Shown piece after piece: positions 10,596 to 14,037 of a stretch of 27,405 nt of DNA. Source of the DNA: Steroidobacteraceae bacterium (lineage in GTDB: Bacteria > Pseudomonadota > Gammaproteobacteria > Steroidobacterales > Steroidobacteraceae). Under the pieces are notes generated by a model. That model ran no database searches. It was not told the origin of the DNA and saw only the letters and a list, made by a program, of their open reading frames with translations. Location of the stretch: positions 1 through 27,405 of the forward strand of contig DASUYI010000321.1 in NCBI GenBank assembly GCA_036377475.1. The letters are read 5' to 3'. Position numbers and translations under genes: made by a program. The stretch's first letter is position 1. Every line of letters starts with the position of its first letter.

Positions 10596-11357
10596 TCAAC
10601 GTCGCGGCGGCGACTCCCAGTCCGCGTCACGCGCGGCGGCTTCGGCGTTCGCGTCCAGCGCCTCGCCCGCGATCGTTGCCTCGACGAGCGTCCGCACGCT
10701 CTCCGGCAGCGCCGCGCTCGTCGCCTGTCGCAGGTTCGTGTGCGCGGCGATATCGGGTGAGATCGACTCGAGGATCCGCACCTGCCACGCGCCACCCCGC
10801 GCGTGACAGGCGAGCCCCGCCTGCACCGTGGTCGTGCCGCGGATCTCGAAGCTCCGGCAATACTCGCCCGACGTCGCGAGATAGCTGAGCCCGATCGTGA
10901 TCGGTGCGGCCCGTTCGGCGGCGAGCTGACGCGACAGCGCGGTCGCCAGCGCGTCGGTCGCCACCATGCCCTCGGGTCCGGCCGCGACGTACGTCTCCGG
11001 CGACTGCGGTGCCAAGACCTGTCGGCCGAGCAGAACGCCGACCAGCAGGCTTGCGGCCACCGCGAACCACGCCGGCGGGCGCCACGTCGCAGGGCGCCGT
11101 GCCTTCGCCGGCAACGTCACCACGCCGCCGTCGCGTGCGCTCGACCCGCGCGCCGCCCGCAGCAGGCGGTCGGGCACGGGCTCGGCGAGCGTGGAATCGA
11201 ACGCGGCCTCGAGTTCGCGCTGCAGGCGTCGCTGCATCTCGACCCGCCGCGCGAGTGCCGGATCTGTCGCGAGCGCGCGTTCGAAGGCTTCGCGTGCAGC
11301 AGGGTCCAGTTCGCCGTCGACGTAGGCGAGCAACGTTTCGTCGTCGTATTCGTTCAT
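10596..11357 (-). CDS. Transmembrane anti-sigma factor
   Basis: N-terminus DDETLLAYVDGELDPAAREAFERAL is a typical anti-sigma domain start. Single TM (WFAVAASLLVGVLLG). Periplasmic domain with GEYCRSF..GLAC. ATGA overlap with the sigma stop. Confidence 0.88.
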   Translation of the reverse strand: MNEYDDETLLAYVDGELDPAAREAFERALATDPALARRVEMQRRLQRELEAAFDSTLAEPVPDRLLRAARGSSARDGGVVTLPAKARRPATWRPPAWFAVAASLLVGVLLGRQVLAPQSPETYVAAGPEGMVATDALATALSRQLAAERAAPITIGLSYLATSGEYCRSFEIRGTTTVQAGLACHARGGAWQVRILESISPDIAAHTNLRQATSAALPESVRTLVEATIAGEALDANAEAAARDADWESPPRR

Positions 11358-11845
11358 CGTGCCCCCGTGACGGAGGATTCGAAATGGGTCGCCAGCGCGG
11401 TTCGCGCGCGCGCGAGCCGGCTCGTCAGCGTTCCGATCGGCACGTCCATGACGTCCGCCGCCTCCTTGTAGGAGAGTCCTTCGACCAGCACGAGGCCGAC
11501 GGCGAGGCGTTGCTCGTCGGGCAGCGTCGCAAGTGCACGACGCAGCGCGATGTTGTCGAGCGTCGCGTCCGACGACGCGCCCGCCAGTTCGCCCGCCGCA
11601 TCCTCCGGGACGAACAGCCGGTTGCGACGCTGGCGGGTGCGCAGCTCGTCGAGCCAGGCGTGACGCACGATCCCGAACAACCAGTGCAAGGGGTTCGAGC
11701 CCGGCCGGTACTGGTCGATGTGGCGCAGTGCGCGTTCGACGGCGAGCTGCACGAGGTCGTCGGCGTCGTGCACGTTGCGACACAGCGTCCGCGCGAACCG
11801 CCGCAGCCGTGGCAATGCATCGACGATCGCCTCACTCAAGTCCAC
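11354..11845 (-). CDS. ECF-type sigma-70 factor (start probably GTG 11845; alternative ATG 11881)
   Basis: Region 2: LPRLRRFARTL..DADDLVQ..WLFGIVRH. Region 4: GLSYKEAADVMDVPIGTLTSRLARAR. Translationally coupled to the anti-sigma. Confidence 0.92.
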   Translation of the reverse strand: MDLSEAIVDALPRLRRFARTLCRNVHDADDLVQLAVERALRHIDQYRPGSNPLHWLFGIVRHAWLDELRTRQRRNRLFVPEDAAGELAGASSDATLDNIALRRALATLPDEQRLAVGLVLVEGLSYKEAADVMDVPIGTLTSRLARARTALATHFESSVTGAR

Positions 11846-11850
11846 TTGGG

Positions 11851-11879
11851 TACTACGCCCGGACTGCGCGCTTTCTTCC
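11851..11879 (-). promoter_or_regulatory. Putative autoregulatory ECF promoter GGAAGAAA-N13-GCGTAGTA
   Basis: Same layout and spacing as the motif at 13277-13305. It ends 5 nt before the sigma GTG. Confidence 0.6.
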
Positions 11880-11930
11880 ATGCCGGCAAATTTATTGTCC
11901 CGCGTGATGCGCGGGCAGTAATGTTGCCAC

Positions 11931-13268
11931 ATGGCACGCACGCCCACGCGCGACTGGCTTCTCCGCAGCATCGGCTGCGTCATGACGTGCTCGATCTCAC
12001 CTGCGCCGGCGCAGGTGGCGCTGCCGGAGCTGGGCGTGAAACTGCCTTCGGCGACCTTGCCTGCGCCGCCCCTCGACGCGACCGGTCCTGCGGGGCTCGC
12101 CGTGAAGGTCGACGCCCGCAAGCTCCGCGTTCGGGCGCGCGTGCGCGCCTACCCGGACCAACTCGACCTCGATCCACGCGGTGAATTGGTCGTGCGCGGC
12201 GAATTGCTGGCGGAGCCCTCGAGCGACGCGGCGATCCGCGCCTGGCGCGATGCCGGCTTCCAGGTTCGACGCGAGCGGACGTTCGAGGACTTCGGCCTCG
12301 ATGTCTACGTGCTCGGGCCGCCGACCGGACGGTCACTCAATGAATCGCTGCGCCGGTTGCGAGCGCTCGATCCAAGTGGCCACTACGACTTTCACCATGT
12401 CCTGGTCGAAAGCGGCGCGGCCGACGTCGGTGACGTCGCGACCCCCGTGGCCGCGCCGGCGACCGCGGCGGGTCCGATGCAAGCCGTGCGCGTGGGGTTG
12501 ATCGACGGCGGGTTGGCCGCAACACACGAAGCCTTCGCGGGTGTGGCAGTGCTGTCCCACGGCTGCGGGGACCGAGATGTGCCGAGCATCCATGGCACGG
12601 CCGTGGGCTCGCTGCTGGTGGAGTCGCTCGGCGCACGCGCGAGCGGCGGCGCGCCGCGTGTGGAACTCGCCGCGGCCGACGTGTACTGCGGTGACGCCAC
12701 CGGTGGCGCCGTCGAGCGCGTGATCGACGCGCTGGGCTGGATGTCGCAGCGGCAGGTCCCGGTGATCAACGTGAGCCTCGTCGGCCCGCGCAATCGCGTG
12801 CTCGAGCGCGTGATCGCGCGGGTCGTTGCGCGCGGACACACGATCGTCGCCGCCGTCGGCAACGACGGTCCGGCCGCGGCACCCCTGTTTCCGGCGGCCT
12901 ACGACGGCGTCGTCGGCGTGACGGCAGTGGATCGGCGCGGACGGGTCCTGCTGGAAGCCGGTCGCGGACCTCATGTCGACTTCGCGGCGCTGGGCACGGA
13001 CCTGCAGGCGGCCACGGTGCCGCATGGGCGAGCGTCGGTCCGCGGCACTTCGTTCGCGGCCCCCCAGGTCGCGGCGCTGATCGCGATGCGAGTGGCGCAA
13101 CCCGATCCGGCTGCGGCAGCCACTGCCCTCGAAACCCTGGCGCGGGAGGCGACCGATCTCGGCGCACGCGGGCGGGACCCGGTTTACGGCCTCGGCTGGG
13201 TCGGGATCCCGACGCCGGACGGAAGGACGAACGCGGACAGGCTTATGTCAAAGGACCGGAACCCGTAG
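11931..13268 (+). CDS. S8 (subtilase) serine peptidase, secreted, with N-terminal pro-region
   Basis: Catalytic motifs LIDGG (Asp), HGTAV (His), GTSFAAP (Ser) and oxyanion AVGNDG; GRDPVYGLG tail; signal peptide ending APA/QV. Confidence 0.92.
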   Translation: MARTPTRDWLLRSIGCVMTCSISPAPAQVALPELGVKLPSATLPAPPLDATGPAGLAVKVDARKLRVRARVRAYPDQLDLDPRGELVVRGELLAEPSSDAAIRAWRDAGFQVRRERTFEDFGLDVYVLGPPTGRSLNESLRRLRALDPSGHYDFHHVLVESGAADVGDVATPVAAPATAAGPMQAVRVGLIDGGLAATHEAFAGVAVLSHGCGDRDVPSIHGTAVGSLLVESLGARASGGAPRVELAAADVYCGDATGGAVERVIDALGWMSQRQVPVINVSLVGPRNRVLERVIARVVARGHTIVAAVGNDGPAAAPLFPAAYDGVVGVTAVDRRGRVLLEAGRGPHVDFAALGTDLQAATVPHGRASVRGTSFAAPQVAALIAMRVAQPDPAAAATALETLAREATDLGARGRDPVYGLGWVGIPTPDGRTNADRLMSKDRNP

Positions 13269-13276
13269 GCCCGCGC

Positions 13277-13305
13277 GGAAGAAACGCCGGCCGCCGGTCG
13301 TATAG
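13277..13305 (+). promoter_or_regulatory. Putative ECF-dependent promoter GGAAGAAA-N13-TCGTATAG
   Basis: Matches the motif in front of the sigma gene. It sits between the S8 stop and the next ATG. Confidence 0.6.
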
Positions 13306-13354
13306 CTCATCGAAGCACGCGGACTGTTCCGCGGTCACGGTGAGGAAAGACGAC

Positions 13355-13987
13355 ATGAACACCAAGCATCGTTCGCTCGCGTTGGGCACGGCGTTGTGCG
13401 CGGCCTGGTTCTGGACGGGTCCGGTCTGCGCGCAGGTCCTCGGTGGTTCGCTGGGCGGCGGCGCGGGCGGCTCCCTGGTCGGTGGGCCGGGGCTCGCCGT
13501 CGGCGGCGACCTGCGCATGGGTGCCACCGGCTCGCTGGACGCGAACCCGGGCGCAGTCCGCTCGACGGCGGGCGAGGCGCGACGGGAAGTGTCGGAGCGG
13601 ACGCGCACGACGCGCGAGCGCGCGACGTCGACCGGCCGCCAGGCGATCGCCGCCGCCCAGTCGACGACCGGTGCAACCGCGGGAGCAGCGGCCGAGGCCA
13701 CGCAGGGCAGCGTGTCTGGTCGCGTGGATGCGGCTGCGACTGTCGCCACGGCGACGGATGTCAGCGAAGTCACGTCCGGAGCGCATGCGATGCACGGTGC
13801 GTCGCTGCAGCGTGGGGCAGCGGCGACCAGCCCGGGGGTTTCTTCGTCCGAAGGCGCGCATCCGAACGCCGAACCGGCGGCGACGCAGCCGCCCGATAGC
13901 GAAGGTACCCACCAGCCATCCGCGCACGGGCGCGCGGGCGGCCGCGTGGCGGCCACCGCTGAGCGGGAGCCCGCAACGTCGAACTGA
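13355..13987 (+). CDS. Hypothetical secreted Gly/Ala/Thr-rich low-complexity protein (210 aa)
   Basis: GAGGA RBS then ATG 13355. Signal peptide MNTKHRSLALGTALCAAWFWTGPVCA/QV, followed by LGGSLGGGAGGSLVGG. Terminator-like hairpin after the stop. Confidence 0.75.
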   Translation: MNTKHRSLALGTALCAAWFWTGPVCAQVLGGSLGGGAGGSLVGGPGLAVGGDLRMGATGSLDANPGAVRSTAGEARREVSERTRTTRERATSTGRQAIAAAQSTTGATAGAAAEATQGSVSGRVDAAATVATATDVSEVTSGAHAMHGASLQRGAAATSPGVSSSEGAHPNAEPAATQPPDSEGTHQPSAHGRAGGRVAATAEREPATSN

Positions 13988-14000
13988 CCCGGGATCCCAC

Positions 14001-14037
14001 CAGGGGCGGGCCCTCGATCCGGGTCCGCCCCTGTTTC
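14001..14037 (+). terminator. Probable intrinsic terminator
   Basis: 13-bp stem caggggcgggccc/gggtccgcccctg (one G-U pair), 7-nt loop, short T tract, 13 bp after the stop at 13987. Confidence 0.55.

Follow-up and report, generated by a model that had tools for sequence, protein, structure and literature searches.

A secreted subtilase as candidate site-1 protease of an anti-sigma factor in a conserved ECF26-type module

Extracytoplasmic function (ECF) sigma factors rank among the main bacterial signalling systems, and for most of their groups the activating step is unexplained. The locus considered here raises the question of how an ECF sigma factor and its membrane anti-sigma factor might be related to a secreted subtilase encoded divergently beside them. 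We addressed this question in 27,405 nucleotides of contig DASUYI010000321.1 of a Steroidobacteraceae bacterium (assembly GCA_036377475.1), a stretch that is called the window below. Its source is a metagenome-assembled genome that is incomplete (626 contigs, 71% complete, ~68% G+C, 2.95-Mb assembly), and the close relatives of its proteins carry the label Steroidobacteraceae. Positions 10596–13987 hold four genes: those for an anti-sigma factor and an ECF sigma factor on the minus strand and, divergent from these, those for a pre-pro-subtilisin and a secreted glycine-rich protein on the plus strand. All four exist near the coordinates given in an earlier note on this DNA, which was made from the sequence alone. 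We show below that they form a real, widely conserved envelope-signalling module, of a kind already catalogued (probably ECF26, RpoE6 type). A predicted complex further suggests that the protease may dock through its active site onto an invariant anti-sigma loop. Our preferred reading of the whole module, for which we put the chances at about even, is that the subtilase would act as a dedicated site-1 protease of the anti-sigma factor, or possibly as its docked partner.

A conserved module of probable ECF26 type

We examined 80 related loci from reference genomes, 4 from assemblies and 1 from a close relative, which span alpha-, beta- and gammaproteobacteria. Cultured carriers include Steroidobacter, Peristeroidobacter, Massilia, Pelomonas, Caulobacter, Brevundimonas, many sphingomonads, Rhodanobacter and Mesorhizobium. 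The sigma and anti-sigma genes are divergent from the subtilase gene in approximately 70 of the 72 related loci that have the upstream flank; a strict filter for the pair beside the subtilase recovered 65 of the 72, and 5 of the 7 misses are over-extended open reading frames (ORFs). Directly 3' of the S8-family subtilase gene, with a median gap of 96 nt, the fourth gene is found in at least 58 of 79 related loci, so that the co-conservation of all four genes, for which a synteny check had been proposed, is borne out. The fourth gene went undetected in about a quarter of the loci, including those of Sinorhizobium meliloti and Mesorhizobium, where the triad of the other genes remains.

The distribution of the module is patchy. 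Of 151 genomes sampled from the order, 10 have the anti-sigma family, 11 have the subtilase family and 9 have both, adjacent and on one contig; the exceptions are one genome with an anti-sigma-like gene only (G145) and two with a more distant subtilase only. At the genus level, the family was found in just two further genomes of the 24 searched, and homologues are present on 130 plasmid records. In the window, the module is flanked by genes for a PLD-type phospholipid synthase and a BaxI-type membrane protein. Its neighbours vary from locus to locus and these two are not kept beside it elsewhere, as expected of the self-contained signalling module that the earlier note had described.

Pfam assigns to the sigma factor the domains Sigma70_r2 (E 2.6e-16) and Sigma70_r4_2 (E 3.6e-13) and no others, and the protein scores above the cut-off of the NCBIfam sigma70-ECF superfamily model. 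It is 46% identical to the RpoE6 homologue of the S. meliloti plasmid pSymA, and this likeness is what would place it in group ECF26 as an RpoE6-type member, the literature having put RpoE6 in ECF26. Within that group, divergence of the sigma gene from a gene that encodes a serine protease, SMa0142 in S. meliloti, is widely conserved (Lang et al. 2018, PMC6180224), and PMC6180224 credits Staron et al. 2009 with the earliest mention of this protease context. The arrangement of a sigma/anti-sigma pair divergent from a serine protease, for which the earlier note knew of no characterised counterpart, had thus already been described.

The length of the divergent gap depends on the start assigned to the sigma gene. 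Its longest ORF begins at ATG 11881, within the promoter described below and overlapping the -35 element. In relatives, the sigma start codon lies 8–18 nt past the CGT of this promoter (9 nt in the window, from GTG 11845), often with in-frame stops between. Because of the promoter position and these stops, we take GTG 11845 and not ATG 11881 as the homologous start, in agreement with the RpoE6 alignment, which begins at residue 14. The gap between the sigma and subtilase genes is therefore 85 bp, and divergence across less than 90 bp, as had been claimed, holds for this start but fails for the longest ORF. Downstream, the stop/start overlap ATGA at 11354–11357 joins the sigma and anti-sigma genes into the coupled pair previously noted and, judging from the sequence, the sigma factor and its membrane anti-sigma factor are co-translated.

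Predicted docking of the subtilase on the anti-sigma factor

The subtilase matches Peptidase_S8 (E 2.7e-19; 70 bits against a cut-off of 21.8) and comprises a signal peptide (residues 1–28, ending APAQ/V), a disordered Pro-rich linker, an I9-like prodomain (60–165), a second linker and a catalytic domain (185–428). It had been described as a secreted enzyme with an intact triad, and Asp192, His221 and Ser374 are indeed invariant across 33 relatives, as are Asn311, Cys212 and Cys253. Its AlphaFold model (pLDDT, predicted local distance difference test, 81) best matches, in the PDB, unprocessed pro-subtilisin E (3whi, E 8e-18) and pro-Tk-subtilisin. The prodomain, missed by the Pfam sequence search, is modelled as a beta-alpha-beta-beta-alpha-beta unit with pLDDT >94. 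Since the model, with its signal peptide and prodomain, matches unprocessed pro-subtilisins, the protein appears to be an ordinary exported zymogen. The family is very large: more than 6,600 proteins score E <= 1e-10, and full-length identities of ~50% are common among them; the S. meliloti pSymA homologue is 37% identical. One subtilase paralogue (L003) lacks an anti-sigma neighbour. One homologue from a genome of the same bacterial family as the window (G173:C74:15696-17006) contains one in-frame TGA and may therefore be a pseudogene; its anti-sigma neighbour matches model positions 1–117 only.

The anti-sigma factor consists of a class I anti-sigma domain (residues 1–70), a membrane helix (~95–115) and a periplasmic alpha/beta domain (~120–250). 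Its model has a pLDDT of 84, with lower confidence in loop 200–218, and includes a conserved C-terminal GEPLD...E...GW segment; Cys167 and Cys184 of the periplasmic domain are invariant. The N-terminal domain resembles those of RslA (3hug, Z 7.0, root-mean-square deviation 4.6, 61 aligned residues), RsiW (5wuq, Z 6.5), MucA and RskA. We considered a zinc-binding anti-sigma factor (ZAS, HxxxCxxC) and rejected it, residues 1–70 containing neither Cys nor His that could serve as zinc ligands; the Pfam zf-HC2 model scored 21 bits, under its cut-off of 22.2.

The periplasmic domain is the more distinctive part. Foldseek against the PDB returned no match to its fold at E <= 0.001, the matches of a wide VIA-align search with the anti-sigma model were taken up by the N-terminal helices, and a search of the AFDB Swiss-Prot set yielded solely the overall architecture of the RskA/RslA type. 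A single-sequence search with the domain, its reach limited by the word index, found 13 proteins. Across five genomes, the domain matched the S8-linked anti-sigma factors only, and their paralogues matched the N-terminal domain only. Within it, residues 207–214 form a loop with the family consensus G-x-Y-R-Q/M-A-small-S: among 29 sequences, Ala212 is present in all 29, Arg210 in 24, Tyr209 in 21 (Leu in the window) and Ser214 in 21.

Three relatives of the anti-sigma gene depart from the usual form. In a metagenomic locus (L018:2746-3648, minus strand), and in this locus only, a gene for an Rce1-like membrane protease of the CPBP family, which is often tied to membrane-protein processing, overlaps the end of the anti-sigma gene. 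In S. meliloti ABS7 pSymA (L101:3158-3944), the homologue of ecfR6 appears as two ORFs that are out of frame with each other, of 176 aa (anti-sigma domain and membrane helix) and 145 aa (periplasmic domain), which suggests a frameshift in the strain or in the record. Finally, in genome G145 (L114:4163-5053), a full-length anti-sigma-like gene stands alone, with no sigma, subtilase or glycine-rich protein gene within ~4 kb.

We predicted the structure of a complex between the subtilase catalytic domain (183–430) and the anti-sigma periplasmic domain (116–253), using 29-row alignments drawn from the same loci. The interaction prediction score from aligned errors (ipSAE) was 0.75, 0.73 and 0.76, against 0.01 for the best of three controls. 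In calibration, 58 of 80 solved complexes and 2 of 110 mismatched pairs attained the mark, counts that carry over only roughly because custom alignments were used. The partners had pLDDT values of 83–84, and 85–92% of the contacts were shared between runs. On the subtilase side, the predicted interface comprises Asp192, His221, Ser374, the substrate-binding strand 282–286 and the Asn311 segment (308–317); on the anti-sigma side, it comprises loop 207–214, residues 145–158 and 222–239, and the GEPLD motif. Anti-sigma residues 210–212 pair with subtilase residues 283–285 and Ala212 touches the catalytic Ser374. Interface positions are better conserved than the rest of each domain (p = 3.7e-4 for the anti-sigma factor). 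The predicted complex thus supports binding between the two proteins and suggests that the protease would dock its active site onto the invariant loop, and the earlier idea that the subtilase may act on the anti-sigma factor gains in-silico support to that extent.

Promoters and the glycine-rich protein

The features of the module are collected in Table 1.

Table 1. Genes and putative regulatory features of the module, in window coordinates
Feature	Coordinates	Strand	Basis
Terminator-like hairpin followed by a T run, 3' of the anti-sigma gene	10529..10546	-	Consensus scan and fold z -1.6
Anti-sigma factor, 253 aa	10596..11357	-	Class I domain, membrane helix, periplasmic domain (structure model, fold matches)
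Loop codons of anti-sigma residues 207–214 (TNLRQATS)	10716..10739	-	Column counts and predicted complex; Ala212 codon at 10722-10724
ECF sigma factor, 163 aa	11354..11845	-	Pfam r2 + r4_2; start GTG 11845; anti-sigma gene overlapped at ATGA
ECF-type promoter of the sigma operon, GGAAGAAA-N13-GCGTAG, reading GGAAGAAAGCGCGCAGTCCGGGCGTAG	11853..11879	-	29.3 bits, best genome hit
TAATGT, sigma-70-like -10 hexamer 6 nt 5' of the subtilase ATG	11919..11924	+	Read from the sequence
Pre-pro-subtilisin, 445 aa	11931..13268	+	Peptidase_S8, alignments, AlphaFold model, PDB matches
ECF-type promoter of the fourth gene, GGAAGAAA-N13-TCGTAT, reading GGAAGAAACGCCGGCCGCCGGTCGTAT	13277..13303	+	26.6 bits, second-best genome hit
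Secreted glycine-rich disordered protein, 210 aa	13355..13987	+	Signal peptide 1–26, profile search, composition
Intrinsic-terminator-like hairpin, 13-bp G+C stem followed by TTTCC	14001..14033	+	Fold z -3.7; 0/200 shuffles as good

The motif GGAAGAAA-N13-nCGTA lies upstream of both the sigma gene and the fourth gene. When the 2.95-Mb assembly was scanned with a weight matrix built from relatives, leaving out the window and its closest relative, these two sites scored 29.3 and 26.6 bits and the next best 16.8. The promoter motif common to the two genes that the earlier note had pointed out therefore stands, its two occurrences being by far the best sites in the assembly, and autoregulation of the sigma factor, also proposed there, fits the motif 5' of its own gene. 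Because the sigma operon and the fourth gene share this ECF promoter, the sigma factor most likely drives itself and the glycine-rich protein. The sigma transcript is predicted to have next to no leader, and that of the fourth gene to begin past 13303. With a relaxed pattern, 71 of 75 loci have the motif 5' of the sigma gene, 48 of 51 have it 5' of the fourth gene and 44 of 75 have it 5' of the subtilase gene.

The window's subtilase gene is among those lacking it: no ECF motif was found 5' of it at >= 14 bits in the weight-matrix scan or with the relaxed pattern. In the window's lineage, the subtilase gene thus appears to be without a recognisable ECF promoter, and the fourth gene would be the sigma factor's clear local target. 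The sequence TAATGTTGCCACATG at the subtilase start (11919–11933), which includes the TAATGT hexamer, is identical in two related loci (L002 and L017) whose proteins are only 54–79% identical. This hints that TAATGT may be a housekeeping promoter giving a leaderless subtilase transcript; a consensus sigma-70 promoter scan of 10400–14200 gave no hit.

Elsewhere, the two divergent promoters share sequence. Sphingomonads and Caulobacterales have a single palindrome (GGATGAAACG...CGTTTCATCC) whose two halves are the sigma promoter and the subtilase promoter. In L064 and ~24 other alphaproteobacterial loci (for example, L056, L068, L075 and L085), this palindrome is ~32 bp long, GGATGAAACG-N12-CGTTTCATCC, with each promoter on one strand, such that the -10 region of either promoter is the reverse complement of the other's -35 element. 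Burkholderiales loci differ in that the overlap between the two promoters is confined to their -35 elements (GGAAGAAAATCC). As for the terminator-like hairpins said to bound the module at both ends, the right one is borne out by its fold score, whereas the left one is present but unexceptional, with one terminator-like site found against 1.5 expected.

The fourth protein has a signal peptide ending VCA/QVLGG; G, A, S and T together make up 59% of its mature part, which lacks Cys and aromatic residues. It belongs to no Pfam or NCBIfam family; among 25 relatives, weak hits were obtained to PRC-barrel in 2 and to Apolipoprotein in 1. The ESM Atlas gave a disordered model (pLDDT 0.44), the nearest clusters being unnamed. 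An iterated profile started from this protein found exactly one ORF per locus, always directly 3' of the subtilase, in 59 loci, and inspection added at least 3 further loci with the gene. Across the family, nothing is shared beyond the signal peptide and the motif Q-[VIL]-LGG-x-GGGxGGxLxGG at the N-terminus; the tail is variable, fast-evolving and of low complexity, rich in A/S/T/G/R. The earlier description of this protein as an orphan is thus refuted, since a family follows the subtilase in most related loci. We define it here as a conserved, unannotated family of secreted disordered proteins that, from the promoter sequences, would be sigma-dependent.

We also considered whether the fourth protein could be a string of decoy sites resembling the anti-sigma loop. 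The loop-like motif R-x-A-[AGST]-[SGTA] occurs 34 times in 57 mature fourth proteins against 45.7 +/- 6.5 in shuffles (z -1.8), and the idea is unsupported, the motif not being enriched.

Further features of the fourth gene were observed in the window and in particular lineages. The predicted 5' untranslated region in the window (13297–13354) folds into a stable stem-loop (z -3.0; 0/200 shuffles as good) that pairs part of the GAGGA ribosome-binding site and may control translation. Sphingomonad fourth proteins (L084:5338-6180, L054:5352-6245, L064:5332-6201) extend ~60 residues further at the C-terminus, in a segment that weakly matches PRC-barrel (best E 6e-4). In two Rhodanobacteraceae loci (L066 and L070), a secreted Thr/Ser-rich low-complexity protein of ~250 aa, encoded ~214 nt past the subtilase, takes the place of the LGG-motif protein and may be an analogue that replaces it.

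Competing readings and related systems

On the preferred reading, the subtilase would shed its prodomain in the periplasm and its active-site cleft would dock on the anti-sigma periplasmic domain, with the Y/L-R-Q-A212 loop set as P4–P1 against Ser374, as in the predicted complex. By analogy with PrsW and RsiW, a cut after Ala212 would remove the C-terminal 41 residues; the remaining stump would then be trimmed and handed to an RseP-type site-2 protease, and the genome does encode an RseP-like M50 protease (PF02163, 230 bits, contig C370). The freed sigma factor would transcribe its own operon and the glycine-rich protein gene and, in most other lineages though not recognisably in that of the window, the subtilase gene as well. 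The trigger could be whatever governs prodomain release, and the glycine-rich protein is a candidate output, competing substrate or modulator. In its fully specified form, with the co-encoded subtilase as a dedicated site-1 protease cutting the invariant Y-R-x-Ala loop of the folded periplasmic domain and the glycine-rich protein as output or feedback substrate, we hold this scheme only tentatively, the odds leaning somewhat against it.

Several points weigh against this reading. Binding and cleavage are predictions, the complex being a model only that could be biased by the subtilisin-inhibitor complexes in the PDB, and the destination of the subtilase could be either the periplasm or the extracellular space. 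The large predicted interface (~100 contacts) would fit a stable inhibitor-like complex equally well. A cut at residue 212 leaves ~97 periplasmic residues, so that further trimming must be assumed. Where the sigma factor drives the S8 gene, cleavage would lead to runaway positive feedback unless zymogen activation is gated, and the wiring varies among lineages, given that the S8 gene in the window's lineage has no recognisable ECF promoter. The anti-sigma-like gene of G145 occurs without a sigma factor or an S8 protease.

The strongest competitor, which we nonetheless consider rather unlikely, is that the anti-sigma factor senses an envelope signal itself, that the subtilase and the glycine-rich protein are mere members of the regulon (such as a protease for envelope remodelling or nutrient scavenging together with a disordered protein that protects) and that the docking is a false positive. 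Overexpression of RpoE6 in S. meliloti induces SMa0142, which makes the protease a target (PMC6180224). The S8 gene and the fourth gene have ECF promoters 5' of them at the frequencies given above, genes conserved next to those of ECF sigma factors are often targets, and a small number of mismatched pairs also reached the mark used for the complex. However, being a target is compatible with an input role. The periplasmic domain occurs only together with this S8 family in the genomes checked, the predicted interface is built from invariant residues of both families, and the S8 gene of the window keeps its position though it lacks the sigma factor's promoter.

We regard as improbable a second alternative, in which the periplasmic domain is a membrane-bound inhibitor of the canonical-loop type, or a docking site, and no productive cut occurs. 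The protease and the anti-sigma factor would then be made in matched amounts, and the sigma factor would be freed when the protease is drawn off or the complex is disturbed, for instance, by the glycine-rich protein. The extent and confidence of the predicted interface, with exosite contacts outside the loop, are in keeping with such a tether, as is the conserved disulfide pair of the periplasmic domain, and the alphaproteobacterial palindrome, serving both divergent promoters, would match the expression of the two partners. In contrast, the loop has a pLDDT of 64–73 in the monomer model, unlike the rigid loops of canonical inhibitors. Fold searches, dominated by the N-terminal domain, revealed no likeness to known subtilisin inhibitors, and there is no known route by which release of the protease would free the sigma factor without proteolysis. 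Lastly, it is very improbable that the main task of the subtilase is to mature the glycine-rich pre-protein, yielding an active peptide or a surface polymer, with the sigma/anti-sigma pair only regulating a two-gene secretion cassette: the position of the fourth gene directly 3' of the S8 gene, the conserved N-terminal motif and the protease-accessible disordered tail would suit such maturation, but the fourth gene is undetected in S. meliloti, Mesorhizobium and other loci that keep the triad, has its own promoter instead of being fused to the S8 transcript, and shows no enrichment of the R-x-A-small-small motif.

What the preferred reading, with the subtilase as site-1 protease, adds is a residue-level hypothesis: the docking prediction, which is new here, turns a gene-neighbourhood link into one open to standard tests. 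The subtilase-linked ECF26 subgroup is widespread, with thousands of metagenomic S8 homologues in addition to the many cultured genera and the plasmid records. The work on S. meliloti RpoE6 is the only experimental work on this subgroup and gave targets, neither signal nor mechanism. Our literature search, which was incomplete in coverage, found no paper proposing a relation between protease and anti-sigma factor in ECF26 and none linking anti-sigma factors, site-1 proteases and subtilisin-like enzymes.

The closest known system is that of S. meliloti, RpoE6-EcfR6-SMa0142, which has the same three genes in the same divergent layout, with the sigma factor and S8 protease identities given above and a homologous anti-sigma factor. 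When overexpressed, RpoE6 induces its own operon, SMa0142 and neighbouring genes, and its function was not reported (PMC6180224); other ECF26 members respond to sulfite, whereas rpoE6 does not (Bastiat et al. 2012, PMC3511301). The promoter type is alike as well: the RpoE6 consensus has -35 GGAATA and -10 GT/CGT (PMC6180224), and the -35 element of the window differs at one or two positions (GGAAGA versus GGAATA). Unlike the window, S. meliloti lacks the glycine-rich fourth gene and carries an ECF promoter 5' of its S8 gene. This comparison explains the wiring of the module, not its mechanism.

The earlier note had compared the locus with the PrtI/PrtR pair of Pseudomonas fluorescens, in which an ECF sigma factor and a membrane regulator are tied to extracellular protease production. 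The protease controlled there is a metalloprotease encoded elsewhere, no homology or layout in common with the window was seen, and PrtI/PrtR is thus not the closest analogue.

For the mechanism, three systems offer partial parallels. Like RsiW of the Bacillus subtilis sigmaW system, which the N-terminal fold matches, the anti-sigma factor is a single-pass class I protein. PrsW cuts RsiW after an Ala ~40 residues from the C-terminus, and trimming precedes site-2 cleavage by RasP; the cut predicted here would likewise fall after an Ala, 41 residues from the end. However, PrsW is membrane-embedded, is not a secreted subtilase and is not encoded beside sigW. In the Escherichia coli sigmaE-RseA/DegS/RseP system, proteolysis of a membrane anti-sigma factor is also begun by a periplasmic serine protease, and an RseP homologue is present in the genome studied here. 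Yet DegS is an S1 protease of the HtrA type that is switched on by the C-termini of outer-membrane proteins, has no prodomain and is not a dedicated co-encoded enzyme, and the periplasmic domains are not homologous.

The third parallel is eukaryotic. In the processing of SREBP and ATF6, the S8 subtilase Site-1 protease (S1P/SKI-1) cuts first and the M50 Site-2 protease (S2P) follows. If the model holds, the module would be alike in that a luminal or periplasmic first cut by a subtilisin-family enzyme licenses an intramembrane M50 protease to release a transcription factor, although the resemblance is one of mechanism only, with another substrate motif and no orthology implied. Were this reading true, the list of known site-1 proteases that act on bacterial anti-sigma factors would come to include subtilases, and the module would be the counterpart in bacteria to the eukaryotic S1P (subtilase)/S2P cascade, providing a mechanism for a whole widespread and unexplained subgroup of ECF26.

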